Of a DNA stretch of 64,000 nt, positions 9,339-51,803 are shown one piece after another. A program made the position numbers and the translations under genes. The notes beneath the pieces were generated by a model that did not search any database, was not told the origin of the DNA, and saw nothing but the letters and a program-made list of their open reading frames with translations. Each line of letters begins with the position of its first letter. Position 1 is the stretch's first letter. This DNA is from Escherichia phage vB_EcoM_G29: the sequence record MK327940.1; one strand, written 5' to 3'.

Positions 9339-9353
9339 TCTTTGACGATTTAA

Positions 9354-9383
9354 GGGACCTTCGGGTCCCTTTAGTTGTTTTTA
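9354..9383 (+). terminator. intrinsic terminator after gene 23 (UUCG tetraloop hairpin + U-tract)
   Basis: gggacc-ttcg-ggtccc followed by tttagttgttttta. Confidence 0.75.
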
Positions 9384-9386
9384 TGG

Positions 9387-9394
9387 TATAAATA
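9387..9394 (+). promoter_or_regulatory. late promoter TATAAATA for gene 24
   Basis: Exact TATAAATA 28 nt upstream of gene 24 ATG, just after gene 23 terminator. Confidence 0.65.
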
Positions 9395-9421
9395 AATCAT
9401 ATAAACTGAAAGGAAAGCGCA

Positions 9422-12318: not shown

Positions 12319-13792
12319 TTATGGATAGGTATAGATGATACCAGTTTCTAAAGCAGTTTTATGAATGATGTATCCATTGCGTGATTCTTGAACATCAACT
12401 TCTGGATAGTCTTTCATCATCTTCTGAAGAGTGTAACGATGCAGGTAGTATTTACTATCTGGATCTTCAGTTTTCCAATCTTTACCTTCTTCGGTCATTT
12501 TTTGGATTTCATCCATAACCCACCAACCGCACCAGATATAAGCTGAAGTGCGATGTGGAAGAGGATGAACATAAGGCAATTCACCTTCTGGTTCCGGAGC
12601 AACTTTATCAGTTACCTGAACTTGGCCTGTTGCTTTAACTGTTTTACTATCATAGTCGGTTGCTGTAACGGTTGCAGTAACTTCAATAGTTTGACTTCCA
12701 ATAGATGATGTATCAACCGTGTATACATTAGTTGATTCTTCTACAGGAGAAGAATCTTTCTTCCATGAATATTCGATTTGTGCTTCTTCTGGAGCATCCG
12801 TAACATTAGCAGTAAATGTAGCCGAAGCATCTTGCTGAACGTTAATAGAAGGAGGAGTCAATGTAACCTGTGGATTCATTGTCTTCTTATTAACTGTTAA
12901 TGATACTTCATTAGAAGTAACTTCCTTTTCATTGTAATTTTCAGCCGTTACTTGGGCTACGCATTTAATTCTTTTTACTCCACTTGTAGTTGGAGTATAG
13001 TTAAATGTAGAGTTAGTTTCTCCACCAATTTGAGAATCATCTACATACCATTTATATGTAGCAGACGCTCCATCAGGTTGAGAAACCAAGGCAGCAGTAA
13101 ATTGAACTGGGGTTCCAATTACTCCAGCTGGAGGACTATCAGGAGTTACTGCCAAGGTAGTTGTCTGCGTCTTTTTATTAACAGTCAGTGACACTTCATT
13201 GGAAGTAACTTCCTTTGTATCATAATCTGTCGCGGTTACTTGAGCTACGCACTTAATTGTTTTAACTCCGCTTGCGTCAGGAGTGTAATTGAATGTAGTG
13301 CTAGTTGCTTCGCCCACAGGAGAACCGTCAACGTACCATTGATACGTAGCGTTTGCACCTGATGGCTGTGAAGCTAAGGCAGCCAACGTACCATTGATAC
13401 GTAGCGTTTGCACCTGATGGCTGTGAAGCTAAGGCAGCGGTAAATTCAATTGGAGTTCCAATCACTCCAGCATCAGGGCTACCAGGAGTTACTGCCAAAG
13501 TAGTTGTTTGTGTCTTATTTTGAACTGTGATAGTTGTACTAATTTCAGCTGTTTCAGGTTCAGATTCTGCAACTTGATTGGTTGCAACTACTTTAATAGT
13601 CTTTTGACCGGCAGGTCCTTTTAGTACATAACTAAAAGTTGCTGACGTTTCTTCCTGTGGAGCGTCGTCTACAGTCCAAGCATATGTAATAGGTCCATCT
13701 CCAGTTTGACCACTGGGTGTAGCAGTAAACTGCTGAGTCTGATCTATAACTCCAGTAGGTGTTTTAGGAGTTATATCAACTGTAAAAGCCAT
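12319..13792 (-). pseudogene. hoc: hoc (highly immunogenic outer capsid protein) disrupted by a 55-bp tandem duplication; split into track ORFs 13328-13792 and 12319-13413
   Basis: Tandem Ig-like repeats (TLAVTP...ATYQWYV) plus C-terminal capsid-binding region recalled from T4 Hoc; the peptide ALASQPSGANATYQWYV is encoded twice in different frames; the second ORF starts at GTG with no RBS. Confidence 0.85.
13329..13438. repeat. perfect 55-bp direct tandem duplication (2 copies: 13329-13383 and 13384-13438) inside hoc
   Basis: Both copies read caacgtaccattgatacgtagcgtttgcacctgatggctgtgaagctaaggcagc, identical base for base. Confidence 0.95.
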
Positions 13793-13801
13793 AAGTTATC
13801 C

Positions 13802-14482
13802 TTATTTTAATGTTACGAAAGAAGAATTACGTGTTTCACGAATTAGAACTGATCCGTCACGATTAATGTAGTAAATTAAGCTAAATAAAGTTTGGTGTGC
13901 CGACGCATGTTCAAAACTAGTTGGGTGAGATTTCCAATCTGGGGTTTCAGCAATCCATTGATAAATCCACCAAGGAACAGTGCAGAATCCTGGATTTTTT
14001 CCAATCAGCTGAAGATTCGGACTAAAGTTTTCCGGAAGAGTAAATACAGACGGCTTTTCAGATTCAATAATCTCAGCTACAGCCTGTTCGAATTTTTCTT
14101 CAACAAAAGGAGTATCTTCAATTAAAACAGTGGTATTTTCAGGAATTTTATCCGTTTCTACTACTTCAATTTTAATGTCAGATTTAACCGGAGAATCAAT
14201 CAGAAGTGCTGCCTCTGGATTGACTTCTTCATCGTCATATTTTAATCCGTCTGCGGCATCAGCAGCATCAATTAAGTCTTTAATAGATAACCCATCAGTC
14301 TCTGGCATAGGTTCACTAGCGAGCTTCTGGAGAGCTTCTTCAATATCATTAACGATATTATCAAAAGATTTATTCTTTTTGACCTTTATACCAAACTGTT
14401 CAGCATATTCAGCTAATTTAGCTTTAGCTTCTTTATTATCATCAAGAGCCTTCAGCTCTGCAATATAATCTTTATCTATCAT
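13802..14482 (-). CDS. inh: Inh, inhibitor of prohead protease gp21 (226 aa)
   Basis: 226-aa ORF matching T4 inh length and position next to hoc. Confidence 0.8.
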   Translation of the reverse strand: MIDKDYIAELKALDDNKEAKAKLAEYAEQFGIKVKKNKSFDNIVNDIEEALQKLASEPMPETDGLSIKDLIDAADAADGLKYDDEEVNPEAALLIDSPVKSDIKIEVVETDKIPENTTVLIEDTPFVEEKFEQAVAEIIESEKPSVFTLPENFSPNLQLIGKNPGFCTVPWWIYQWIAETPDWKSHPTSFEHASAHQTLFSLIYYINRDGSVLIRETRNSSFVTLK

Positions 14483-14495
14483 AATATTTCCTCAG

Positions 14496-14503
14496 TATAA
14501 ATA
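14496..14503 (+). promoter_or_regulatory. late promoter TATAAATA for uvsW
   Basis: Exact TATAAATA 30 nt upstream of uvsW ATG. Confidence 0.6.
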
Positions 14504-14532
14504 TAGATATATTTATTACATGGTATTTAGAC

Positions 14533-16044
14533 ATGACTGACATTAAAGTACATTTTTATGATTTTAGTCACGTGAGAATTGATTGCGAAGAAAGTACATT
14601 TCATGAACTCCGTGATTTCTTTAGCTTTGAAGCTGATGGGTATCGTTTTAATCCGAAGTACAAATATGGCCACTGGGATGGACGAATTCGTCTTTTAGAT
14701 TATAATCGCCTTCTTCCATTCGGTTTAGTCGGGCAAATTAAAAAGTTCTGCGATAACTTTGGCTATAAAGCCTGGATTGACCCACAGATTAACGAAAAAG
14801 AAGAATTATCAAGAAAAGATTTTGATGAATGGCTTTCTAAATTAGAAATCTATTCAGGAAATAAAAGAATTGAACCACACTGGTATCAAAAAGATGCAGT
14901 GTTCGAAGGATTAGTTAATCGTCGTAGAATTCTTAATCTTCCAACATCCGCTGGTAAATCTTTAATTCAAGCTTTGCTTGCGCGATATTATTTGGAAAAT
15001 TATGAAGGTAAAATTCTTATCATTGTTCCAACAACTGCTTTAACAACTCAGATGGCTGATGACTTTGTTGATTATCGTTTATTCAGTCATGCAATGATAA
15101 AGAAAATCGGTGGTGGAGCATCAAAAGATGATAAATATAAAAATGATGCACCAGTCGTTGTTGGTACATGGCAAACTGTAGTAAAACAACCGAAAGAATG
15201 GTTCTCACAGTTTGGAATGATGATGAATGATGAATGCCATCTTGCTACAGGAAAAAGTATTTCATCTATCATATCAGGTTTAAATAACTGCATGTTCAAA
15301 TTTGGTCTATCTGGTTCATTACGTGATGGCAAAGCCAATATCATGCAGTATGTTGGAATGTTTGGTGAAATATTTAAGCCAGTAACGACTTCTAAGTTAA
15401 TGGAAGATGGACAAGTAACTGAGCTAAAAATTAATAGTATTTTTCTTCGCTATCCCGATGAGTTCACTACTAAATTAAAGGGAAAAACTTATCAAGAAGA
15501 AATAAAAATTATTACGGGGCTTAGTAAAAGAAATAAATGGATCGCTAAATTGGCTATTAAGCTTGCACAAAAAGATGAAAACGCTTTTGTCATGTTTAAA
15601 CATGTATCACATGGTAAAGCTATTTTCGATTTAATTAAAAATGAATACGATAAAGTTTATTACGTATCAGGGGAAGTTGATACCGAAACCCGCAATATAA
15701 TGAAAACCTTAGCTGAAAATGGTAAAGGAATAATTATAGTAGCTAGTTATGGTGTATTTTCTACTGGTATTTCAGTTAAAAATCTGCATCACGTTGTTTT
15801 AGCGCACGGTGTTAAATCAAAAATCATTGTATTACAAACAATCGGTCGTGTATTACGTAAGCATGGTTCTAAAACAATCGCAACAGTCTGGGACCTCATA
15901 GATGACTGTGGTGTCAAGCCAAAATCTGCTAATACTAAAAAGAAATATGTTCACTTGAACTATCTTTTAAAACACGGCATTGATCGTATTCAGCGCTACG
16001 CAGATGAAAAATTTAATTACGTAATGAAAACAGTTAATTTATAA
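14533..16044 (+). CDS. uvsW: UvsW DNA/RNA-DNA helicase (503 aa)
   Basis: Walker A (PTSAGKS) and DECH box; T4 uvsW length and position; TATAAATA upstream. Confidence 0.95.
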   Translation: MTDIKVHFYDFSHVRIDCEESTFHELRDFFSFEADGYRFNPKYKYGHWDGRIRLLDYNRLLPFGLVGQIKKFCDNFGYKAWIDPQINEKEELSRKDFDEWLSKLEIYSGNKRIEPHWYQKDAVFEGLVNRRRILNLPTSAGKSLIQALLARYYLENYEGKILIIVPTTALTTQMADDFVDYRLFSHAMIKKIGGGASKDDKYKNDAPVVVGTWQTVVKQPKEWFSQFGMMMNDECHLATGKSISSIISGLNNCMFKFGLSGSLRDGKANIMQYVGMFGEIFKPVTTSKLMEDGQVTELKINSIFLRYPDEFTTKLKGKTYQEEIKIITGLSKRNKWIAKLAIKLAQKDENAFVMFKHVSHGKAIFDLIKNEYDKVYYVSGEVDTETRNIMKTLAENGKGIIIVASYGVFSTGISVKNLHHVVLAHGVKSKIIVLQTIGRVLRKHGSKTIATVWDLIDDCGVKPKSANTKKKYVHLNYLLKHGIDRIQRYADEKFNYVMKTVNL

Positions 16045-24896: not shown

Positions 24897-24950
24897 TCCT
24901 CATGTTATGTCAGTAAGACTACTATAACACAACACGAGGGACTTGTAAAC
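24897..24950. repeat. 54-bp dispersed repeat copy 1 (early promoter plus leader); copy 2 at 40821-40874
   Basis: 53 of 54 nt identical (tcctcatgttatgtcagtaagactact[a/g]taacacaacacgagggacttgtaaac). Confidence 0.9.
24921..24950 (-). promoter_or_regulatory. early promoter (GTTTAC-N18-TATAGT) for the alt.-3-position ORF
   Basis: Minus strand GTTTAC overlapping the stop of the Alt paralog, TATAGT 18 nt downstream, leader with GAGG before ATG. Confidence 0.6.
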
Positions 24951-27007
24951 TACATCTTGAACTTTTTAGACATTCCGTTGATGTTAACCAAAGAAGCTAA
25001 GATTTGAGAAACTTCGTTTTCCTCTTCTTTTGATTCTTCTACAAGGAATTGATTAAATCCAGCCATTGGACGAACTTCACCAGTTTCCATTAGATGGTCG
25101 CCATCATATACTGATTCTTCTAATTGTTCAGAAGGAGGAACGATTGTACCTTCGATTAGATACTTGTTATAAGCAGTTTCTTTCATAAAGTAAGTACTTA
25201 CTTTATTAATCTTCAGTAAAATTCCACGTGGTAGAATAACTTCAGCTTCTGACGGAAATCCTGATAAATGACCCGGAACGATAACTTTGATTCGCTCAGC
25301 TCCTTTAATTACCATACCCACGCTAGTTTCAGCATCTTCATTAGCATATGTAGAATGACTACCCATATGCATCAAATCTTCTGCATCAACGGAACCTTCT
25401 CCTTCACCAGAAAATACTGCGCCGGAATCATCTAGAGCCATATAGTTTTTACCATGCTCACCGAAGATATTTGGTTTAAGCGATGTGGATACGAAGTTCT
25501 TGAAATAGAACATTTTATTTTCAATGTTATGACGCAAAGTTTTAAAGGTAACTTCTTGTCCACGGTAAAGTGTAGTTCCTGGAGGAAGAACTGAACCTTT
25601 AGCGAATGCAGAATCAAGCGTCTCAATATGTTTAATAGCTCGTTCCATATATTCTTCACGGGTAGAATCTGGTTTACCCAAAAGGAACGAGTTCATTTCA
25701 ACATATGAATCTGCACAATAATCTTCAATTACATCAGATTCAGCTTGAGTTAATCCTTTTGGAGTTACTTCAGTGCTTGCGTATTCATATGCCTGAGCAG
25801 CAGATTCATTAATCAATTTATAAATGCCATTCATGACAAATTGAATAATAGCTGTCTTTTCATCTGGCGTAGCTTTAGAACCTTTAACCAAATCATTGAT
25901 AATTTTCTTAATAACATCAAAGCTATTAGAAATATTAATATCAGCAAGATCGCTTAAAATTTTATCAGTCTTATAATCAAAGAATTCTTTATTCTTTAAA
26001 TATTCTTGAGAACCTTGATATGTTATATCGCTCTGTAACTTGATAGATGGATCACGTAAACGTGCATGGGCTAATGCAATATGATTTCGGAAGCTTTCGA
26101 GTTCATAATCACTAGATTTAAAACGAGAAGCGCTTCTCATACCGCCTATAGCTCCTTTGCTGAAGTTTGAACCAATTTGAATAACGCCAGAGTTCATTGG
26201 TCCTTCTGCTTTATACACCGGAACTTTAGATTCAAACTCTTGATATTTCTTAGCAGCGAAGCTATCACCCTGAAGTGAAGCATCAACAGTAGAATATTGA
26301 GCTTGTGCTGCTAATCGACGACTAATTTTAGTTTTCTGAATAACAGCTTGGTCCGTGCGCTTATCATTTTCTAAAGCAATAGAAGCAGCAACAGCAACAG
26401 CTTTAGGAACAGCATTACCTGTTTTAACATCTACATAAACATCACCAACCTTTGATTCAACTTTTGTGAATAACTCAGTTGAAATAGGAGGTACACCTGG
26501 AATGTCTTCTAAATTGGCATTTTTACGATAAACCATAATATATGCGTACTTTTTATCATAATCCCAGATTTCCTTTAAAAGAACATATCGACCTGCTCCT
26601 TTAGTACGTACTAAACGGTCAGCAATAACTTGCATTTGACGAGCAGCGCCATTTGTTTTACTCTTTAGTACGCGGAATAAGCATGCATCAATTTTATACT
26701 GTTTCATTGTTTGAAGAGCAGTATCAAAAACAGCGTTAATGACGCCAATTGGATTTCCACCCAAGTTTCTAAGTTTAACCAGTGATAATTTCTCGTTGAC
26801 ACCTATCATTACGATATGCATCATTTTATCGCCCGGCTTAACGTTTTTATTTGTATCACCTCCAGAGGTGTATGTACAAAATCTAAATCCAGGAAGCACG
26901 CTTTCTTCGCCGGCTTGAATAGCAAAAATTTGAGGTATTTTATGCTTAGGATTTAAGTTAACAACCGGCGCCGAAGCGCCGTCAAATAATTCTGTAATAA
27001 GTTCCAT
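24950..27007 (-). CDS. Alt-like ADP-ribosyltransferase paralog (685 aa)
   Basis: Shares the alt N-terminus (MELITELFD...CTYTSGGDTN...KIDAC...GRYVLLKE.WDYDKKYAY) and R / S-T-S / E-x-E ART motifs (LYRGQ, FVSTSL, SEAEVILPRG); central region divergent. Confidence 0.85.
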   Translation of the reverse strand: MELITELFDGASAPVVNLNPKHKIPQIFAIQAGEESVLPGFRFCTYTSGGDTNKNVKPGDKMMHIVMIGVNEKLSLVKLRNLGGNPIGVINAVFDTALQTMKQYKIDACLFRVLKSKTNGAARQMQVIADRLVRTKGAGRYVLLKEIWDYDKKYAYIMVYRKNANLEDIPGVPPISTELFTKVESKVGDVYVDVKTGNAVPKAVAVAASIALENDKRTDQAVIQKTKISRRLAAQAQYSTVDASLQGDSFAAKKYQEFESKVPVYKAEGPMNSGVIQIGSNFSKGAIGGMRSASRFKSSDYELESFRNHIALAHARLRDPSIKLQSDITYQGSQEYLKNKEFFDYKTDKILSDLADINISNSFDVIKKIINDLVKGSKATPDEKTAIIQFVMNGIYKLINESAAQAYEYASTEVTPKGLTQAESDVIEDYCADSYVEMNSFLLGKPDSTREEYMERAIKHIETLDSAFAKGSVLPPGTTLYRGQEVTFKTLRHNIENKMFYFKNFVSTSLKPNIFGEHGKNYMALDDSGAVFSGEGEGSVDAEDLMHMGSHSTYANEDAETSVGMVIKGAERIKVIVPGHLSGFPSEAEVILPRGILLKINKVSTYFMKETAYNKYLIEGTIVPPSEQLEESVYDGDHLMETGEVRPMAGFNQFLVEESKEEENEVSQILASLVNINGMSKKFKM

Positions 27008-27010
27008 GAT

Positions 27011-29062
27011 TTATCCTTGAACGAACTTGTAAGGCATGTTTGTAATATCTATGCAAGACGCAATAATTCCAAGAGATGATTCTACTTTCTGTTTAACATT
27101 TGATGAAACAAATGATGCAAAGTCAACTCTATCTTCTATATCACCTGTCATTGTAACTACTTCGCCGGTTTCCATTAAACGGTCACCGTCATAAATTACT
27201 GATTCGGTGAGTTCTTCGGTGGTCATAACTTCAGCTTGAATAAGCTTGTTGTTAGTTTTGACTGTTCCATCATTGTAAGATGCATCAGTTATTTTATTAA
27301 CTTTGACCATTAATCCACGTGGCAAAATGACTTCCATTTCATTTGAAGGCGCTAAACTTCCACCGGGTAAAACAACATTGACTTTATCAGCCCCAGTAAT
27401 AACCCATCCAATTCCGACTAAATTATCGCTAGAATTAACAAGCCCTTCATCATTTTTATCGATAGAAATGTTTAGACGCTTTTCATCTGGTAAAACACCA
27501 ACAGCTGAATCAGTCATCCAAGTACCAAAAATGTTTGGATATAATGATGTTGATACAAAATTTCTAAAATAAAAAACTCGATTTTTTACCATTGCTTCGT
27601 ATATTGAAGGTAACATTCGTTGTGAACGATACAAAGTAATACCTTTTGGTAATCGTTCACCATTTTTAAAGGCTGAATCTAAATTATCAATAGCTTTTTC
27701 TATGTCAGATGCTGTCAAAATACTTGTACGCTCATCTGGATTATATAATCCCAAAAGAGCATTATTTATGTCTACATATCCTGAACCTACGTATTCACGA
27801 ATTCCGCGTTTTTGTGCTGGTGTGTATTTAGATGAATCTTTATTTTCGACTATAGGATGTAATGACCATCCAGCTGTAAGAGCATATCCACGTAATTCTC
27901 TTCGAATAATCTTTGTTTTTATTGCATTCCAAGAATTTTGTACTAACTCATTTGCAGCATCTTGGTTTAAATGCGAATGTTTGTTAATATTTCTTTCAAA
28001 CCAAGCACCTTTATATTTTTCTAAAGTATTATCGACGATAGAAGCAATAGTTTCTAAAGTTTTTATTGAAGTAATAGATTCTTTTCGTAATTTTTCTAAA
28101 GCTTTATTTTTTATTTCTGCATTAATAATGGATTCTTTATCTTCAGGAATTATAGAAGCTTCTCTGAATGCCATCCCAGCTGTAACACTGCTAAGAGCAT
28201 TCTCTAGTGCAAATCCTGAAGTAGAAATTACCGTTAATTCATTAGAATCAGAAATTAAAGGCGCATCAGCGGGTTTATTTAATTCTGCTGCTGAAGCCTC
28301 AAATTTTTGAAACATCGGTGTTTCAAATCTAGAAGATTCCAATGACTGACTTTGTGCAATTGCTCTACGGGAAATTTTAACTTTAACGATTACAGCTTGG
28401 TCAGAACGTTTATCATTTTCTTGTGCAATAGATGCTGCAATTGCCTCATTTTTGGTTACTTGAGCTCCGGTATCTTTATTGATATAAACATCACCGACCT
28501 TCGATTCAACTTTAGTAAAGAGCTCGGTACTAATTTCCGGAACTCCTGGAATGTCTTCTAGTGATACATTTTTGCGATGTATAAGAATATATGCATACTT
28601 TTTATCATAATCCCAGAGTTCCTTAAGAAGGACGTATCTGCCACCTGAACGACTACGGATAAGTCTATCAGCAATAACTTGAATTTGTCGAGCTTGATCA
28701 GCGGTTTTAGACTTAAGAATACGAAGCATACAAGCATCAATTTTATACTGACGCATTGTTTGCATTGCAACAGTAAAAACTGAATTGATATAATTAATTG
28801 GGCTTGGACCAAGACCTTTTAATTTAGCAATTGAACCTTTAGCGGTTAATGTAAAAGGAACAATATGCATCATTTTATCGCCCATTTTTAAATCGCGATT
28901 AGTATCACCTCCAGATGTATAGGTACATAAACGAAAGCCTGGTTGTTCAATTGCATCATCAACATGAACTGAAAAAATTTGCGGTATTTTCTTCTTTGGA
29001 TTTAAGTTTGTAATCGGAAGAGTAGTATCTTCGTCAAATAATTCTGTAATAAGTTCCATCAT
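27011..29062 (-). CDS. alt: Alt ADP-ribosyltransferase, head-packaged (683 aa)
   Basis: 683-aa ORF adjacent to gene 30 as in T4; ART motifs LYRSQ, FVSTSL, NEMEVILPRG; late TATAAATA upstream. Confidence 0.9.
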   Translation of the reverse strand: MMELITELFDEDTTLPITNLNPKKKIPQIFSVHVDDAIEQPGFRLCTYTSGGDTNRDLKMGDKMMHIVPFTLTAKGSIAKLKGLGPSPINYINSVFTVAMQTMRQYKIDACMLRILKSKTADQARQIQVIADRLIRSRSGGRYVLLKELWDYDKKYAYILIHRKNVSLEDIPGVPEISTELFTKVESKVGDVYINKDTGAQVTKNEAIAASIAQENDKRSDQAVIVKVKISRRAIAQSQSLESSRFETPMFQKFEASAAELNKPADAPLISDSNELTVISTSGFALENALSSVTAGMAFREASIIPEDKESIINAEIKNKALEKLRKESITSIKTLETIASIVDNTLEKYKGAWFERNINKHSHLNQDAANELVQNSWNAIKTKIIRRELRGYALTAGWSLHPIVENKDSSKYTPAQKRGIREYVGSGYVDINNALLGLYNPDERTSILTASDIEKAIDNLDSAFKNGERLPKGITLYRSQRMLPSIYEAMVKNRVFYFRNFVSTSLYPNIFGTWMTDSAVGVLPDEKRLNISIDKNDEGLVNSSDNLVGIGWVITGADKVNVVLPGGSLAPSNEMEVILPRGLMVKVNKITDASYNDGTVKTNNKLIQAEVMTTEELTESVIYDGDRLMETGEVVTMTGDIEDRVDFASFVSSNVKQKVESSLGIIASCIDITNMPYKFVQG

Positions 29063-36756: not shown

Positions 36757-36989
36757 AGTACGCCATACACCCTTTGTGCTTCAACTAATCCATCAAAATC
36801 CAATTTGAGATGTGTTATTTGGTCACCATCACCTGGATTCACAATTACTAATACCGAACGAGGAGTTTCGGTAATAACACGAACCGACGTTTCAGGAAAT
36901 CGTTCAGAAACCTTATTTACCAATTCTTGAGCAAATAGTTTAACTTTTTCTTGGAATTCTTTAACAGTAATTGGTTTTTCGCTTAGCAT
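36753..36989 (-). CDS. hypothetical protein, 78 aa (cd.2-like)
   Basis: ORF with ATG start, overlapping neighbours. Confidence 0.6.
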   Translation of the reverse strand: MLSEKPITVKEFQEKVKLFAQELVNKVSERFPETSVRVITETPRSVLVIVNPGDGDQITHLKLDFDGLVEAQRVYGVL

Positions 36990-37498
36990 GTTGATCCTAG
37001 CTCCTTACTTTCAACATTTTTAACTAATTTGACAGAAACTAATTCAGCATCTTGGGTAATCATTACCGGACCTTCTTCATGCTCTTCAAGATATTCTAGA
37101 GCTTTCTTTTTAGCTTCTTCCTTCGTATCAGTTTGAGCATAGATATAGAACATACAACCAGTAATACCTACTACTTTCCACTTAATTTCTTTATCAGTTT
37201 TAATTTCAAATTTACTTACAGAATCATCTTTTTGAACTTCTTCGAAAAAAGAATATTCTAACATATAAGCAATTGAAAATAACGGGCTAACTTTATAGGA
37301 TTCACCCATTACATCAACAGCTTTATACCAACAATCATCAATTTCACGTTTAATGCTAATAACATTTTTCGCAGGATCTATTTTTACTTTAAATGAATTT
37401 TCCCCAATAAACTGGGCAATTCGTTTATTAGCCCCCGCAAGTTTCATTAAAAATATCTTTATATCCAGCTTTAAAGCGATAAACCTTATCTTCTTCAA
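36983..37498 (-). CDS. hypothetical protein (cd.3-like); start ambiguous, possible frameshift relative to promoter-proximal ATG at 37511
   Basis: Track ORF starts at TTG 37498; the SD-preceded ATG at 37511 opens a 27-codon frame ending just after a C5 run (37432-37436); first in-frame ATG at 37447. Confidence 0.55.
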   Translation of the reverse strand: MKKIRFIALKLDIKIFLMKLAGANKRIAQFIGENSFKVKIDPAKNVISIKREIDDCWYKAVDVMGESYKVSPLFSIAYMLEYSFFEEVQKDDSVSKFEIKTDKEIKWKVVGITGCMFYIYAQTDTKEEAKKKALEYLEEHEEGPVMITQDAELVSVKLVKNVESKELGSTC

Positions 37499-37541
37499 AC
37501 CATTCGCTCATTTCAATTTCCTCATTTGTTTTGGTAGAGCT

Positions 37542-38242: not shown

Positions 38243-39442
<1,200 letters not shown>

Positions 39443-39446
<4 letters not shown>

Positions 39447-40877: not shown

Positions 40878-42465
<1,588 letters not shown>

Positions 42466-42492
42466 AATAAAATGGGCCTTGCGGCCCACTCC

Positions 42493-43671
42493 TTAAAAGT
42501 ATTTTTTAAAACTCATCATAACTTTATCATCAACATCATTATCAATCTGTGCAACAAGATAAGATGACAGTTCTACTTCTTGTGGCGCTGATTGAACATT
42601 ATCAGAATTAAGATATTCACGAATCCAAGGATATGGATGTTTAACCGGAGCATCGGTAATTGGGCATGGAAGACCGCACTGTTTCATACGAGATACAGTT
42701 AAGTAATCAATAAAGCTCCACATGCTATTTGTATTTAATCCAGGAACATCGCCATCTTTAAATAAATGAACTGCCCAATCTTTTTCTTGGCGGTTAACTT
42801 CCATGAAAATATCAACTGCTTCTTGTTCACACTCTTGAGCAATTTTAACCCATTGATCGCCATCAGTACCAGATTGAAGTTGACGAATAATATATTGTGT
42901 ACCTTTAAGATGAAGCTGCTCATCACGTGCAATGAACTTCATAATCTTGGCATTACCTTCCATGATTTCCATGTTTTTATGGAAGTTAAAGGTACACGCA
43001 AAGGATACATAAAAACGAATAGCTTCTAATGCATTAATAACGTGCAAACAGAGGTAAAGAGATTTCATTAGCTCACGCTTCCAATATGTCTCATGCTCAA
43101 TAGCATCTTCAATAACGTCTTCGTCTGCATTAATTTCTTTTTGGTATTCGATATCAGCTTTAGCGTTTTCCCAATAACGAGTTTTAATCAGAACATCATC
43201 ATAATAACGTCCAATGGATTCAGCACGTTTCATAATAGCTTCATCTAATACAATTTCATCAAATACCTTCGATGGATCAGTATAAAGATTTCGCATGATA
43301 TGAGTATATGAACGACTGTGAATAGTTTCACTAAAAGTCCATGTAGCAACCCATGTATCAAGGCTTGGGTCTGAAATTAATGACATAAGTACAGCAGATG
43401 GCGCGCGACCCTGAATGCTATCTAAAAGTGATTGATACTTCAAGTTGTTAGTAAAAATATTTTGCTGATACTGAGGAAGCTTATTAAACTGTGCAGCATC
43501 CATCATCAAGTTTACTTCTTCAGGACGCCAGAAAAATGATAATTGCTTTTCGGTTAAATCTTCAAAAACTTTATGACGTTGAATATCATAACGCGCAATA
43601 CCAAGACCTGAACCAAAAAACATAGGTTCTTTTAAAACATCAACTGGATTTGTATTAAAAACTGTGCTCAT
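42493..43671 (-). CDS. nrdB: ribonucleotide reductase small subunit NrdB, uninterrupted (392 aa)
   Basis: Continuous ORF with di-iron ligand motifs; no intron. Confidence 0.95.
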   Translation of the reverse strand: MSTVFNTNPVDVLKEPMFFGSGLGIARYDIQRHKVFEDLTEKQLSFFWRPEEVNLMMDAAQFNKLPQYQQNIFTNNLKYQSLLDSIQGRAPSAVLMSLISDPSLDTWVATWTFSETIHSRSYTHIMRNLYTDPSKVFDEIVLDEAIMKRAESIGRYYDDVLIKTRYWENAKADIEYQKEINADEDVIEDAIEHETYWKRELMKSLYLCLHVINALEAIRFYVSFACTFNFHKNMEIMEGNAKIMKFIARDEQLHLKGTQYIIRQLQSGTDGDQWVKIAQECEQEAVDIFMEVNRQEKDWAVHLFKDGDVPGLNTNSMWSFIDYLTVSRMKQCGLPCPITDAPVKHPYPWIREYLNSDNVQSAPQEVELSSYLVAQIDNDVDDKVMMSFKKYF

Positions 43672-43722
43672 AAATTTTCCGCTTAGTTAATAGTTGGTGA
43701 CTCGTCCGTGAGTCAAATTATA

Positions 43723-45987
43723 TCATAATTTACAGGATGAACAATCTTCAGCTTTTGGAGTTTCTATTTCATAATCATCAGTACCAGAACCGTCACGGGT
43801 ATTATGATAATAGAAATTTTTTCCGCCAAAATACCAGAAATACAAAAGGTCATCAATCATTATTGACATTGGAACCTTGCCTTTAGGGAAGATTTGGGGG
43901 TCATAGTATGTATTCGCCGAAGCTGATTGACAAACCCATTTCAGCATAATAGCTACCTGCGTAAGATAAGGTTTATTACCTTTCTTAGCTAATTTCCATG
44001 TATAATCATATAGGTCTATGTTATGTTCAATATTGGGCACGACTTGATTAAAGGAACCCTCTTTTGATTCTTTAACAGAGACTGGTCCACGTGGAGGCTC
44101 GATACCGTTTGTACTGTTAGAAACTTGGGAAGATGACTCACATGGCATAAGTGCTGATAGTGTGCTATTACGGATGCCAAAGAGCTTAAGGTCTTCCCGC
44201 AGCGACGACCAGTCACAAACGTATTTTGGAGCTGCGATTTGGTCAATCTTTTTATTGTACCAGTCGATAGGTAATTCGCCTCGAGACCAACGAGTGTCTG
44301 AATAATATTCGCAAGGTCCTTTTTCTTTGGCGAGCTTAATGGATGCTTTAATGAGTCCATACTGTAATCTCTCAAATAGTTCATGTGTTAAATCGTTAGC
44401 ATCTTCATAAGAAGCAAAGTTACTTGCCAGCCAAGCTGCATAGTTGGTAACACCTACACCGAGGTTACGACGCTTTTTAGCTTTTTCTGCTTCAGGAACT
44501 GGATATCCTTGGTAATCCAAAAGATTATCAAGAGCACGAACTTGAACTTCTGCCAATTCATTAATTTTATCTTGGTCTTGCCAGTCAAAATTATCTAGTA
44601 CGAATGCAGAGAGAGTACACAATCCAATTTCAGCATCAGGACTATTCACATCATTTGTTGGAATAGCAATTTCACAGCACAAGTTACTCTGACGAATAGG
44701 TGCCTTTTCACGAATAAACGGAGTATAGTTATTCGTATTATCAATGAACTGTACATAAATTCTTGCTGTTCCTGAACGTTCAGTCATGAGCAATTCAAAT
44801 AGTTCACGGGCTTTAATACGCTTTTTACGAATATTAGGGTCTTTTTCTGCTGCTTCGTATAATTCACGGAAACGGTCTTGGTCTTTAAAATAAGAATAAT
44901 AAAGCTCTCCACCCATTTCATGCGGACTGAACAAAGTAATGTAATCGTTCTTTCCGAATCGTTCCATCATCAAATCATTCAGTTGAACACCATAATCCAT
45001 ATGACGAATGCGGTTTTCTTCTACGCCTTTGTTATTTTTCAAAACGAGAAGATTTTCAACTTCCAAATGCCAAATAGGATAATAAGCAGTAGCAGCGCCG
45101 CCACGAATTCCACCCTGTGAACATGATTTAACTGCAGTCTGAAAATGTTTCCAAAAAGGAATAACACCAGTATGGCGTACTTCACCCATGCCAATCTTAG
45201 AACCTTCGGCACGAATCATACCAACGTTAATACCAATTCCAGCGCGTTTAGAGATATATTCAACAATCGAAGCGGAAGCCTTATTGATAGACTTCAGCGA
45301 ATCACCTGCCTCAATAACAACACATGAACTAAACTGTCGAGTCGGAGTACGACAACCAGCCATAATAGGAGTTGGTAATGAAATCTGTCGAGTAGATACT
45401 GCTTCATAAAAACGAATAACATGTTTTAATCTATCAACAGGTTCATCTTGATGCAATGCCATTCCAATAGTCATAAATGCAAACTGCGGAGTTTCATAAA
45501 TTTGACCAGTGGTTTTATCTTTAACGAGATATTTTTCTTTTAATTGCATCGCCCCGGAATAAGTAAATTCCATATCCCGTTCGTGCTTAATTTTTGATTC
45601 TAAAAATGTAATTTCTTCTGCTGAATATTTTGACAACAATTCAGGGTCATATTTACCTTCATTTACACAGTAAGAAATATGGTCAATAAATGAACGCGGT
45701 TCATACTGCCCATAAACATGCTTACGAAGAGCGAACATTAGACAACGTGCAGCTACATATTGATAATCAGGCTCTTCAACCGAAATAGAATTCGCAGCGG
45801 CCTTAATGACAATAGTCTGAATATCATCAGTTGTCATTCCATCACGGAGATAAGATTTAATATTTTCATATAATTCATAAGGATCTACTGATGTTCCCTC
45901 AGCTGCCCAAGATAAAACTTTAATAATTTTTTGTGGGTCAAAGCTCTGAGAAACACCACTACTTTTGATAACATTAATTAATTGCAT
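43723..45987 (-). CDS. nrdA: ribonucleotide reductase large subunit NrdA (754 aa)
   Basis: 754-aa ORF equal to T4 NrdA length; class I RNR active-site Cys/Glu context. Confidence 0.97.
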   Translation of the reverse strand: MQLINVIKSSGVSQSFDPQKIIKVLSWAAEGTSVDPYELYENIKSYLRDGMTTDDIQTIVIKAAANSISVEEPDYQYVAARCLMFALRKHVYGQYEPRSFIDHISYCVNEGKYDPELLSKYSAEEITFLESKIKHERDMEFTYSGAMQLKEKYLVKDKTTGQIYETPQFAFMTIGMALHQDEPVDRLKHVIRFYEAVSTRQISLPTPIMAGCRTPTRQFSSCVVIEAGDSLKSINKASASIVEYISKRAGIGINVGMIRAEGSKIGMGEVRHTGVIPFWKHFQTAVKSCSQGGIRGGAATAYYPIWHLEVENLLVLKNNKGVEENRIRHMDYGVQLNDLMMERFGKNDYITLFSPHEMGGELYYSYFKDQDRFRELYEAAEKDPNIRKKRIKARELFELLMTERSGTARIYVQFIDNTNNYTPFIREKAPIRQSNLCCEIAIPTNDVNSPDAEIGLCTLSAFVLDNFDWQDQDKINELAEVQVRALDNLLDYQGYPVPEAEKAKKRRNLGVGVTNYAAWLASNFASYEDANDLTHELFERLQYGLIKASIKLAKEKGPCEYYSDTRWSRGELPIDWYNKKIDQIAAPKYVCDWSSLREDLKLFGIRNSTLSALMPCESSSQVSNSTNGIEPPRGPVSVKESKEGSFNQVVPNIEHNIDLYDYTWKLAKKGNKPYLTQVAIMLKWVCQSASANTYYDPQIFPKGKVPMSIMIDDLLYFWYFGGKNFYYHNTRDGSGTDDYEIETPKAEDCSSCKL

Positions 45988-46304
45988 AAGTCCTCAACTT
46001 GAAAATCGTCTTTAAACAATCGGTTAACTATATGAGCTATTATATCACCATGACACGGCTTTGGTTTACATGTGCATCCTAGCCTCATTCCACGTAAAGG
46101 CTCTAAATGTGCTTTAGTTATTTCTCCGGATTTAATTCGACGTATAAAATCTTTTTTGAATAATTCAATGGCAGCCTCCCGGCTGCCAGCATCTTTACCG
46201 ACGTAATTTCCCCAAAATGTACCACGGTGAATATTAACATCAAAGTCGGATTTGTATTTATTCACTACCCGACATAGACGGCCCGCGCGGTGATAATTCG
46301 GCAT
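45978..46304 (-). CDS. small Cys/His-motif protein, 108 aa (nrdA.1-position)
   Basis: ORF with motif [12 protein letters not shown]; overlaps nrdA start. Confidence 0.6.
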
Positions 46305-46521
46305 ATTGTTTTTCCGTTAAAACAGTAATATCGTAGTAACAGTCAGAAGAAGTTTTAACTGTGGAAATTTTATTATCAAAATACTCACGAGTCATTTTAT
46401 GAGTATAATATTTTTTGCCATAAATGATAATAGGCTGATTTGGTCCTGGAACTTCTAGCTCACTTGGATTAGGAAGTGTAAAAAGAACTACACCAGAAGT
46501 ATCTTTAAATCGTAAAATCAT
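46258..46521 (-). CDS. hypothetical protein, 87 aa (nrdA.2-position)
   Basis: ORF overlapping the td stop (ATGA-type coupling) and the next ORF by 47 nt. Confidence 0.55.
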
Positions 46522-47378
46522 ATTGCCATTTTCCCTTTAATTGCTGGATGCGATTCATAATTTTCAAGGATAAAATCTTTCGGTTTCATGTATTCAGTTA
46601 ACCAGTAAAGCTGTGTTTCGGTGTCACAATTTCCAAACTCTATAGGCCAATCAATTTTAAGTTCACATAGTTCTTTAGGCTCACGACGTAAAATTTCTTT
46701 ACATTGCTCAGTATGATTCATATAGATGTGAGTATTACCACCAGAAAATATCAAATCTCCTGGGATAAGATTACACATCTTAGCCACAATATGCGTCAAG
46801 GCAGCGTACGAGGCAATGTTGAATGGCAATCCCAAGAAAACATCTACACTTCTTTGGTACCATTGTAAATCAAGATAACCATTACGCACATTAAACTGAT
46901 AGAACATATGACAGGGCGGTAATGCCATTTGATTGATTTCAGCTGGATTCCATGCTGAAACGATTTGACGTCGATCAGTTGGTAATTTTTTAATACGATC
47001 AATAGTTTCAACTAATTGATCCACACCGCCGAAATCACGCCATTGTTTACCGTATATAGGACCAAGTTCACCACTATGATATCCTAGGTCTTTAGCCTGG
47101 TTTTCATAGTTATCGTCCCAAATAGTTTTACCTTGAATAAGACTACCATGTGTGCGAAGACGTAAATCATTAACATTGGTAGAACCGGAAATAAACCATA
47201 GAAGCTCAGCAATGCATGCATTCCACGCAAGCTTCTTAGTTGTTACCGCAGGAAAACCTTTAGTTAAATCCCAACGTAATTTAGTACCGAACAAAGCAAT
47301 TGTTCCTGTGCCTGTTCGGTCATCGGTTTCATAGCCATTTTCAAAAATGTCTTTAATTAAATCTTGGTATTGTTTCAT
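46518..47378 (-). CDS. td: thymidylate synthase, uninterrupted (286 aa)
   Basis: Continuous 286-aa ORF with ThyA motifs (PPCH, DxxLGxPFN); no group I intron. Confidence 0.97.
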
Positions 47379-47423
47379 TTAGTACCTTATATAAATTATA
47401 ATACATTTTATGAAGCTAAATAA

Positions 47424-47771
47424 TCAATACGGTTTAGCATCAAATTTTCTCTCAATTTCAGGCGTGAAATATAATTCTTTACCGCGTTTGGAAAAGCGAC
47501 CAATAATATGATAATTATTCTCATCAAATGTGATATTACCAATATCCATAGCTTTCAACCAAATATCGATATTTCTATCCAGCTTTATGTCAAAATTCCA
47601 ATACGGAGAACTATTACCGAAAATACTGCAAGCGGATTCAGTGAAACAACTGCTATAAATCTTGTCTTTAGGAACTACTAATTGATAGACACCTTTAATA
47701 AACTGAGGACCCTGCCACTTTGGCTGTTTCGTGTCTTTTTCTAATAGAATAGGGTAATAATTAAAATTCAT
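47424..47771 (-). CDS. hypothetical protein, 115 aa, inserted between frd and td
   Basis: ORF with ATG start and GGCGGA upstream; occupies a position where frd and td are recalled to overlap in T4. Confidence 0.6.
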   Translation of the reverse strand: MNFNYYPILLEKDTKQPKWQGPQFIKGVYQLVVPKDKIYSSCFTESACSIFGNSSPYWNFDIKLDRNIDIWLKAMDIGNITFDENNYHIIGRFSKRGKELYFTPEIERKFDAKPY

Positions 47772-47790
47772 ATTTCCGCCACGCGTTATT

Positions 47791-48617
<827 letters not shown>

Positions 48618-48628
48618 ATTATCTCCTA

Positions 48629-48961
48629 TTAAAAAGGATCAGGAACATATCCGCTAGCTTTAATCATTTTAATTAACGTTAACATTCCTTTGTTAACTGC
48701 TCGTGAGATTTCATCAAAAACTTCATCACTAAAAAGTTCTAACACGCCCTTCTGAACTTTTAATTTACAGCCAACAATTTCGTCATCTCCTATAGTAAAT
48801 TCGCTTCCGCCAATTCCGCCGAAAAACTTAATTACGCCAGTTAACTGTCTTCCACGAGAATATGGGTCGTGTGATAAAGTAATATGAGTCACCCCGGGTA
48901 CAGTTTTAAATTGGCAGCGAATATTTACTTGTGAAATTCCAATTACATGAATGTCAGACAT
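48629..48961 (-). CDS. hypothetical protein, 110 aa (frd.2-like)
   Basis: ORF with ATG start. Confidence 0.6.
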   Translation of the reverse strand: MSDIHVIGISQVNIRCQFKTVPGVTHITLSHDPYSRGRQLTGVIKFFGGIGGSEFTIGDDEIVGCKLKVQKGVLELFSDEVFDEISRAVNKGMLTLIKMIKASGYVPDPF

Positions 48962-50140: not shown

Positions 50141-51049
50141 TTAAAGGTCATTCAAAAGGTCATCTAGGTCCGTGTCATCAGCACTAGATGAACTGCCAGA
50201 GCTTGAGCTCATAAAATCATCTTCAGTTTTTGTTTTGAAGTCATCAACATTGAATGCATCCAAATCATCAGCAACTTTATCAGCTTTCTTAGCGGCAGTT
50301 GCAGCGGCACCACCCATTGCAGCAGTTCCCATAACTTGACTGAACTTAGTGCTCAGTTCTTCAAATGATTTGAATTTATCTTTAGAAGTCATTTCAGAAA
50401 GGTCAACCATTTGTTCGAACAGTTCTTTCTGGAAAGATTCATCGTCAATGTTTGGAATCGCAGATTGATTCAGGAATTTAGATTCGTCGTAGTTACTAAA
50501 ACCAGAAACTTGTTTAACTTTCAGTACAAAGTTAGCACCTTCCCACGGGCAAGTTACATCAACCGGAGTTTCACCCATTTCAACATCAACTGCAATCATT
50601 GCATTGATTTTATCCCAGATTTTCTTACCGAAACGATATTTAAATACTTTACCTTCGTTTTCTGGAGCAGCTGGGTCTTTTACAACAAGAATGTTAGCCC
50701 AGTAAGAAGTTTTACGTTTAACAAGACTGTACTCTTTATTGTCAGTGTTGTACAAATCATTTTTACTGATGTACTGACATACTGGACAAGAATCGTAATC
50801 ACCGTAGGTAGATGAGCATGTTTCGATATACCATTTACCATTTTTCTTGAAACCGTGATTTACAAGAAGTGCGAATGGTGCTTGTTCATCATTTTTAGAC
50901 GGAAGAAAACGAATTACTGCTTGGCCGTTACCCGCATTGTCGAGTTTCAGTTTCCACTCGCCTTTATCTTCAGAAGAAAAACCACCTTTATTTCCAGCCA
51001 GTTTAGCCATTTGCGCAGCGAGTTCAGCAGTAGATTTACGTTTAAACAT
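50141..51049 (-). CDS. 32: single-stranded DNA-binding protein gp32 (301-302 aa)
   Basis: ORF with zinc-binding region (HxCxxC context) and acidic Ser/Asp-rich C-terminus typical of gp32; operator leader upstream. Confidence 0.97.
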
Positions 51050-51140
51050 TTTTATTTCCTTTTTAATTTAATTAACAGTTGGTGCTATGACGATGTATGA
51101 CCTCATAGCTGGTCAGTGAGATAATTATAATCTTATTTAT
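51050..51140 (-). promoter_or_regulatory. gene 32 leader: autoregulatory translational operator (hairpin/pseudoknot region plus UUAAA repeats) and upstream promoter elements
   Basis: Leader reads ...gugcuaugacgauguaugaccucauag...uuaauuaaauuaaaaaggaaauaaaaAUG; inverted repeat cuauga/ucauag; minus-strand TATAAATA at 51123-51130 and TGCTTAT-12-TATAAT. Confidence 0.6.
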
Positions 51141-51149
51141 AATAAGCAA

Positions 51150-51803
51150 TTAATACTTGCAAGATTTCACAGTTTCAATGAAAACATTTTTAGCTTTCTG
51201 TGAATCAATATTTAAAATTTTTCTATAAGCCTTTAACTTTATAGAATAATTATTCCAGACTAAATTATCAGTCTGTTCATCATGTTTATCAATTATATTT
51301 AAAAACGAATCAAGCAAGATAAACGTTTCAAACGAAATTATATTCGATTGAAGTAGTTTAAAAATATAACTTGATTGAACTTTTGGATTATACTCAAAGA
51401 TTTCTTTAAAAGCAGAAACTTCAACTTTTTTACTAAAATAGTAAATATTGCGAATATCTTCTTCAAACTTAAATTTAATTTGCTTTAAGCGTCCGATATA
51501 TTCACGATAAAACACAAGTGCATCAGCGTCAGAGATGTCACCAATCCAAGCATCTTGGTTAGCAACCAAATTACTTATAAAAATTAAAGCAAGTTCCTTT
51601 AATTTATATTTTTCTGATAACTTCTGGAAAAAATACTTATCCCTTCGCTTTTGATAAGCGGCATCAGACACCCGCATGCACCAATTATACTTAATTACAT
51701 CATACTTTCCATTCATATGCTGTTTTATCATTAAGTATAATTTATAAACTGATTTACCATCAATGTATCTTTCACCACCAGCAGGCATGCGGAGTTTAAT
51801 CAT
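51150..51803 (-). CDS. 59: helicase loader gp59 (217 aa)
   Basis: 217-aa ORF, T4 gp59 length and position. Confidence 0.9.
   Translation of the reverse strand: MIKLRMPAGGERYIDGKSVYKLYLMIKQHMNGKYDVIKYNWCMRVSDAAYQKRRDKYFFQKLSEKYKLKELALIFISNLVANQDAWIGDISDADALVFYREYIGRLKQIKFKFEEDIRNIYYFSKKVEVSAFKEIFEYNPKVQSSYIFKLLQSNIISFETFILLDSFLNIIDKHDEQTDNLVWNNYSIKLKAYRKILNIDSQKAKNVFIETVKSCKY

Follow-up and report, generated by a model that had tools for sequence, protein, structure and literature searches.

Does the td-nrdB region of Escherichia phage vB_EcoM_G29 carry the introns and homing endonucleases that occupy it in T4, and if it does not, what does their absence mean? We examined a 64,000-nucleotide stretch of this genome (MK327940.1, hereafter the window), in which td encodes thymidylate synthase and nrdB encodes the small subunit of class Ia ribonucleotide reductase. 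The best explanation, which we hold with high confidence, is that the window comes from a T2-like Tequatrovirus genome in which six loci (td, nrdB, nrdA-nrdB, 32-59, inh-uvsW, and 23-24) are unoccupied.

Six loci occupied in T4

Both genes lie on the minus strand as single uninterrupted open reading frames (ORFs). The td ORF (46518-47378) encodes 286 amino acids and matches positions 1-266 of the 266 in the PF00303 (Thymidylat_synt) profile (E 7e-96). The nrdB ORF (42493-43671) encodes 392 amino acids and matches PF00268 (Ribonuc_red_sm, E 6e-37); at the nucleotide level, it is 93.6% identical to T2 nrdB and 90% identical to spliced T4 nrdB. Td and NrdB would be made from ordinary continuous messages, and no special mechanism would be needed. 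The gene for the large subunit of ribonucleotide reductase, nrdA, is also continuous on the minus strand (43723-45987, 754 amino acids; Pfam PF02867, PF00317, and PF03477).

The spacers are short. Only 51 base pairs (bp) separate nrdA from nrdB (43672-43722, minus strand), with 4 differences from the 51-bp spacer of T2, whereas the T4 interval measures 700 bp and holds nrdB.1 and mobE. Genes 32 (50141-51049) and 59 (51150-51803) are 100 bp apart (51050-51149, minus strand) at the T4 segG position, and a single indel separates this spacer from that of T2 (99 bp). The inh gene (13802-14482, minus strand) is divergent from uvsW (14533-16044, plus strand), and the 50 bp between them (14483-14532) occupy the T4 segE position. 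A preliminary description of the window, made from its letters alone, had reported continuous td and nrdB ORFs of these lengths and nrdA-nrdB, 32-59, and inh-uvsW spacers of 51, about 100, and 50 bp. The ORFs were reproduced from the ORF list and by full-length Pfam matches, and the spacers were remeasured as 51, 100, and 50 bp. A further empty locus, beyond those that it named, is the 83-bp 23-24 spacer (9339-9421, the annotation coordinates shifted by +122) at the T4 segD position.

What is missing was then defined by comparison with T4. The T4 record (NC_000866) has I-TevI within the td intron, a defective I-TevIII within the nrdB intron, nrdB.1 and mobE between nrdA and nrdB, segG between 32 and 59, segE between inh and uvsW, and segD between 23 and 24. 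By blastn, the window is collinear with T4 at 84-98% identity and breaks precisely at the six elements. The nrdB intron (a 598-bp insert, T4 138458-139055), nrdB.1 and mobE (T4 139720-140419), the td intron (a 1017-bp insert, approximately T4 143544-144564), segG (T4 147919-148541), and segE (T4 112045-112679) have no counterpart in the window, and about 60 bp stand in place of segD (T4 106522-107310). The flanking genes are shared in the same order at 90-97% nucleotide identity, whereas all six T4 elements are absent from the window. A global alignment of td to the T4 locus was unreliable, owing to the hypervariable 3' end of the gene, and the exons were spliced by hand at the known junction instead: spliced T4 td has the same length as that of the window, and spliced T4 nrdB encodes 388 amino acids versus 392. 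Alignment with T4, which the preliminary description had proposed as a check, left the window without intron or endonuclease segments and the T4 reference with them. The T4 record also bears out its statement that these genes are interrupted by introns in T4, but of the two endonucleases that it credited to them, the T4 I-TevIII is a defective remnant (PMC1865063).

Searches for the endonucleases themselves were empty. When all 15 T4 homing-endonuclease proteins were compared with the window by tblastn, the best E was 0.32 and no fragment was found, while denA, included as a control, was recovered at 6e-97. Profiles for GIY-YIG and HNH, constructed from T4 sequences, returned nothing below E 0.08 among 878 six-frame window ORFs, yet in the T4 stretch syntenic with the window they recovered segD, segE, I-TevI, segG, and mobE (E ≤1e-29). 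For the GIY-YIG profile, the best window score was 0.08 versus 1e-29 to 1e-42 for four T4 genes; for the HNH profile, it was 1.3 versus 2.7e-64 for T4 mobE. The HNH queries were assembled without the full-length I-TevIII of RB3, but nrdB is uninterrupted regardless. The sole GIY-YIG-like gene in the window is denA (42055-42489), which encodes endonuclease II, is 100% identical to its T4 counterpart, and is not a homing endonuclease. Five small non-T4 ORFs (36983-37447, 39141-39446, 47424-47771, 48372-48617, and 48629-48961) were considered as hidden endonucleases and rejected, as they match only PHROG or DUF families. The remaining window genes are 85-97% identical at the nucleotide level to T4 genes annotated as non-homing. 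With tblastn and both profiles empty and the T4 controls recovered, the earlier statement that the window has no homing-endonuclease genes is upheld for endonucleases of the T4 type.

A search for the introns as RNA was less informative. The Rfam model RF00028 (Intron_gpI) had no window match at E up to 1, but this negative is weak because the model misses known T4 introns: both were missed at the gathering threshold, and E-value mode found the nrdB intron only (35.7 versus 50 bits) and never the td intron. Rfam negatives are thus untrustworthy for ORF-bearing phage introns.

Could the introns or insertions have been collapsed or trimmed during assembly or annotation? Such an artefact is barely credible. 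By megablast, positions 42000-48500 are 100% identical to Escherichia phage vB_EcoM_G4500 (MK327945.1; Straboviridae, Tequatrovirus gee9062; GenBank source manure, Germany), an identity that covers the whole 6.5-kb td-nrdB region. Dozens of further, independently sequenced Tequatrovirus genomes align with the same positions in one piece at 97-99.8% identity, the layout recurs in T2 and RB32, and each ORF is complete. What the artefact has in its favor is a sign of some assembly noise elsewhere in the window, namely two indels relative to the GenBank record, each with 55-bp repeats. Both are outside the td-nrdB region, and apart from them the full 64 kb equals MK327945.1 at approximately record positions 96001-160122. 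The whole MK327945.1 genome (168,363 bp) contained none of T4's 15 endonucleases by tblastn (E up to 0.01) or by profiles (E up to 0.1). Its nrdD is annotated as continuous, and its topoisomerase large subunit is one 605-amino-acid ORF, in contrast to T4, where genes 39 and 60 have mobA between them. Taken alone, the absence of the elements matters little; the window serves as a clear illustration of sites left unoccupied.

Insertion sites in nrdB, gene 32, and td

What would happen to such sites in a mixed infection with an element-bearing phage? Because the empty sites in nrdB, gene 32, and td resemble known recognition sites, the donor endonucleases would be expected to cut or nick the window genome. 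Repair templated by the donor would be expected to transfer the element and, with it, a short stretch of flanking sequence.

The empty nrdB intron insertion site lies between 42995 and 42996 (minus strand), and its flanks are near-identical to the T4 exon junction: across -40..+30, only 3 of 70 positions differ (-35, -8, and +20). RB3 I-TevIII cuts at -14/-16 (PMC1865063), and both cut positions are unchanged in the window. When T4 is crossed with T2, the nrdB intron is mobilized via MobE; the MobE-dependent nicks in T2 fall at nrdB nucleotides 122-126, in codon 42, which is AAG in all mobE-lacking phages (PMC2790892). Codon 42 of the window nrdB (43546-43548, minus strand) is AAG as in T2, where T4 has CGG, and the gene equals that of T2 at nucleotides 91-128, with two synonymous changes downstream. 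With T2-type nucleotides 122-126 and AAG at codon 42, the window nrdB has the features of a predicted MobE target. A close relative, WilhelmHis, matches the window at 97% identity over 6.5 kb but differs in having the nrdB intron, whose endonuclease is full length. The window and T2 copies of gene 32 are 97.2% identical. The SegG cut site is within gene 32, and segG was inherited at high frequency in T4 x T2 crosses with T2 as the recipient (PMC2988022).

The td gene is a different case. It is 77.0% identical to spliced T4 td and 77.6% identical to T2 td, while T4 and T2 td are 95.8% identical to each other; judged by these values, the window td is a third, divergent mosaic allele and not that of T2. 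Some 119 records match it at 90% identity or more. RB32 td is another mosaic, 80.6% identical to that of the window and 86.6% identical to that of T4. As a side observation, td (77%) is much more divergent than its neighbours (93-97%) and forms a mosaic hotspot. Its 3' end (46518-46660, nucleotides 721-861) is hypervariable, with 44 of 60 nucleotides differing from T4 in nucleotides 721-780, and ESh24, HY03, and RB32 have further distinct versions of this end.

The equivalent of the 38-bp I-TevI site (-27..+11) spans 46819-46856 on the minus strand, with the empty insertion site between 46829 and 46830. The bases critical to I-TevI are the C and G of CNNNG at a fixed distance (PMC5009752). The cleavage motif of the window, CAAAG (46852-46856; CAACG in T4), retains C1 and G5 and is at the same distance from the insertion site (-27/-23), as expected of an I-TevI site. 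Ten of the 38 positions differ from T4, all silently at the protein level; of the 21 bp in contact with the DNA-binding domain, 6 differ from T4 and 5 from T2 by a hand count. Work on T4 x T2 crosses has regarded T2 td as a target of I-TevI (PMC2790892). In Tev-mTALEN assays, single substitutions and A/T-rich triplets gave near wild-type activity, and substrates taken from natural td genes, 53-87% identical to T4, worked with the exception of that of RB32 (PMC4065259). The AAA triplet in the window motif differs by one substitution and is A/T-rich. The literature was searched for activity of I-TevI on CAAAG, with no relevant result. We think it probable, from these comparisons, that I-TevI would cut the window td at a useful rate.

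Counterparts of the recognition sequences that the preliminary description had suggested looking for are found at both exon junctions, in td as CNNNG at the T4 spacing despite the 10 differences, and in nrdB with few flank differences and intact cut positions. Its suggestion that these loci are naive homing targets seems apt for nrdB and gene 32, which are T2-like at the known sites; it needs qualification for td, where the allele is divergent.

The divergence of td raises another possibility: the allele may be refractory to I-TevI, its altered motif, spacer, and insertion-site surroundings lowering cutting, so that it persists intron-free by resisting invasion. We consider this unlikely. It would fit the 10 site differences, none of which changes the protein, and the fact that the exact 121-bp site is found in about 90 records at ≥99%, all of those sampled being continuous and intron-free. 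The RB32 substrate, whose activity is reduced, also has CAAAG and AAGTGT in common with the window (PMC4065259), and many CNNNG variants are poor substrates (PMC5009752). However, the divergence of the site is not above the gene-wide level (10/38 versus 188/823 elsewhere in td, Fisher p = 0.69), and we rejected a targeted recoding of the site on this ground. C1 and G5 are kept, and the AAA class is near wild type (PMC4065259). The intron-free records are themselves uninformative, because intron-bearing alleles necessarily lose the intact site. Lastly, G8, the Pu-Krd-SF phages, and HY03 bear the intron in the same allele class, with minimal conversion tracts. Slightly less likely again is the proposal that this allele, common to about 120 phages, is partly I-TevI-refractory and owes its frequency to selection against intron invasion. 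If true, the td allele would show, in nature, a target site escaping within the life cycle of homing endonucleases.

What would homing leave behind in such an allele? Phage G8 (MK373787.1), whose GenBank source is the same as that of MK327945.1 (manure, Germany), has the same td allele, 96.7% identical over 861 coding nucleotides (28/861 differ). It differs in having a 1016-nucleotide intron that carries I-TevI, and around the insertion site (about -45 to +3) it has a tract of the T4/T2 type; about half of the G8-window td differences are inside this tract. HY03 td switches to T4/T2-type sequence 2-5 nucleotides upstream of the motif at which I-TevI cleaves. Phages including ESh24, AV121, U5, and fPS-2 resemble G8 and HY03 in this respect. 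These tracts are the footprints that would be expected if a -23/-25 break were repaired from an intron donor. Window-type td thus appears to have been invaded by the intron in nature, and the G8 gene has the appearance that would be expected of the window td after homing. Together, the window and G8 would show td intron homing before and after the event as it occurs in nature, with only about 48 bp converted, and the pair is a possible teaching example or recipient/donor pair for homing experiments.

The same footprints bear on whether the loci are secondarily empty through precise loss of an ancestor's elements, as could follow from recombination, either with a copy derived from spliced RNA or with a phage that has no intron. 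In life-cycle models, homing endonucleases are gained, decay, and are lost in repeated cycles (PMC5009752), and decayed forms are seen in relatives, such as td introns covering 24-32% of T4's, and in the truncated I-TevIII of T4. Loss with tract replacement is possible for nrdB, whose flanking sequence is conserved across all phages. On the contrary, the td flanks of the window are without the T4-type co-conversion tract, unlike those of G8 in the same allele, the spacers are near-identical to those of T2 with no remnant, and tblastn finds no endonuclease fragment. We give secondary loss little credence.

Several points nonetheless weigh against reading the six loci as empty sites that a donor would invade. 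ORFs without a T4 counterpart had no nuclease domain by Pfam and PHROGs, but other endonuclease families (LAGLIDADG, PD-(D/E)XK, and EDxHD) were scanned in those ORFs only. In td, the differences from T4 include the fourth motif base and the first four adjacent spacer bases (CAAAG AAGTG versus CAACG CTCAG), and some CNNNG variants are very poor substrates (CAAGG gave 1.6% survival, PMC5009752). Tev-mTALEN activity was reduced on the RB32 td substrate (PMC4065259), which has CAAAG and AAGTGT in common with the window site and three extra spacer changes; we rejected RB32 td as a stand-in for the window, since these additional changes make the result not transferable. Ordinary recombination, instead of endonuclease-initiated repair, might in principle have produced the mosaics seen in G8 and HY03. 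We still favor unoccupied loci in a T2-like genome.

Other features of the window

Window segments without a T4 match are 36989-37508, 39145-39439, 47382-47785, 48389-48904, the second alt paralog, and the T2-type tail-fibre tip genes. The cd.2/cd.3 region has a 154-amino-acid ORF (36983-37447, phrog_3710), and a 101-amino-acid ORF (39141-39446, phrog_2364) lies beside pseT; neither has a T4 counterpart, and their functions are unassigned. Between td and frd, which overlap in T4, the window has a 115-amino-acid ORF on the minus strand (47424-47771; phrog_1928, no Pfam match). It has no T4 counterpart, is not a nuclease, and is also found in T2, RB32, G8, and ESh24; a 9-bp flanking repeat noted in the RB32 record hints at an insertion. 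Two ORFs lie between frd and frd.1, one of 81 amino acids (48372-48617, phrog_3183) that is not in T4 and one of 110 amino acids (48629-48961, DUF7247/phrog_3566) that is in neither T4 nor T2. The small genes nrdA.1 (DUF4326) and nrdA.2 (DUF5496), at 45978-46521 on the minus strand, are also present in T4.

The two indels relative to MK327945.1 each affect a gene. At 13329-13438, the window has a perfect 55-bp tandem duplication that breaks hoc into two overlapping ORFs (12319-13413 and 13328-13792), where MK327945.1 has a single 472-amino-acid PKD/Ig-domain protein. The duplication could represent a genuine frameshift variant or have arisen during assembly; assemblers commonly use a k-mer size of 55. 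At approximately 27962-28016, within the ORF 27011-29062, 177 bp (59 codons, in frame) are missing, and in MK327945.1 these are located between two identical 55-mers. The upstream alt paralog has 683 amino acids in the window versus 741 in MK327945.1. The ORFs 24950-27007 and 27011-29062 form a tandem pair of full-length Alt-like ADP-ribosyltransferase genes (PF03496), whereas T4 has a single alt and the short remnants alt.-1 and alt.-2, termed an old partial duplication in T4's own record.

The empty state among Tequatrovirus phages

How common is the empty state? We took as a reference set the approximately 500-510 records that match the td-nrdB region at the Tequatrovirus level. The T4 td intron was present in 197 records (coverage ≥80%) and the T4 nrdB intron in 118; nrdB.1/mobE had any match in 143 and the full region in 20; segG, segE, and segD were found in 142, 159, and 55 records, respectively. 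Each T4 element is a minority trait, carried by approximately 10-40% of about 500 Tequatrovirus records, and empty loci are the norm. T4, with its 15 homing-endonuclease genes, is a recognised outlier among T-even phages (PMC2988022), and the sporadic distribution of introns and homing endonucleases in these phages has been described since the late 1980s. The intron-less, endonuclease-free state is thus ordinary and already described in the literature. We also noted two phages 97% identical to the window: in UFV-AREG1 (NC_031030.2), nrdA is in two parts with a homing endonuclease between them, and vB_Eco_NR1 (LR990704.1) has additional genes close to td and frd. They are examples of how widely the endonuclease load varies among near-identical phages.

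The preliminary description had read the absence of the elements as the mark of a T2/T6-like or other non-T4 lineage. That reasoning is weak: the elements are sporadic and horizontally acquired, which makes their presence or absence a poor lineage marker, and G8 (96.7% identical to the window in td) and WilhelmHis (97% over 6.5 kb) are both intron-bearing. For the most part, the preliminary interpretation holds nonetheless. The window gp38 is a T2-type tail-fibre adhesin (PF05268, E 5e-66; also PF21721) and not a T4-type assembly chaperone. Together with the T2-like td-nrdB layout, this adhesin places the window among T2-type Tequatrovirus phages, so that non-T4 and T2-like are both apt. T6-like is not: T6 (NC_054907) differs in carrying the td intron with I-TevI.

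The window is thus best compared with the intron-less phages of its genus. RB32, RB18, and other intron-less Tequatrovirus phages have continuous td and nrdB genes and a 51-bp spacer, and they lack segG. T2 (AP018813.1) differs from the window in its td allele and in having no 110-amino-acid DUF7247 ORF between frd and frd.1, but it shares the 392-amino-acid NrdB, the 51-bp nrdA-nrdB spacer, the continuous 861-nucleotide td, the 115-amino-acid ORF between td and frd, and the gp38 adhesin type.

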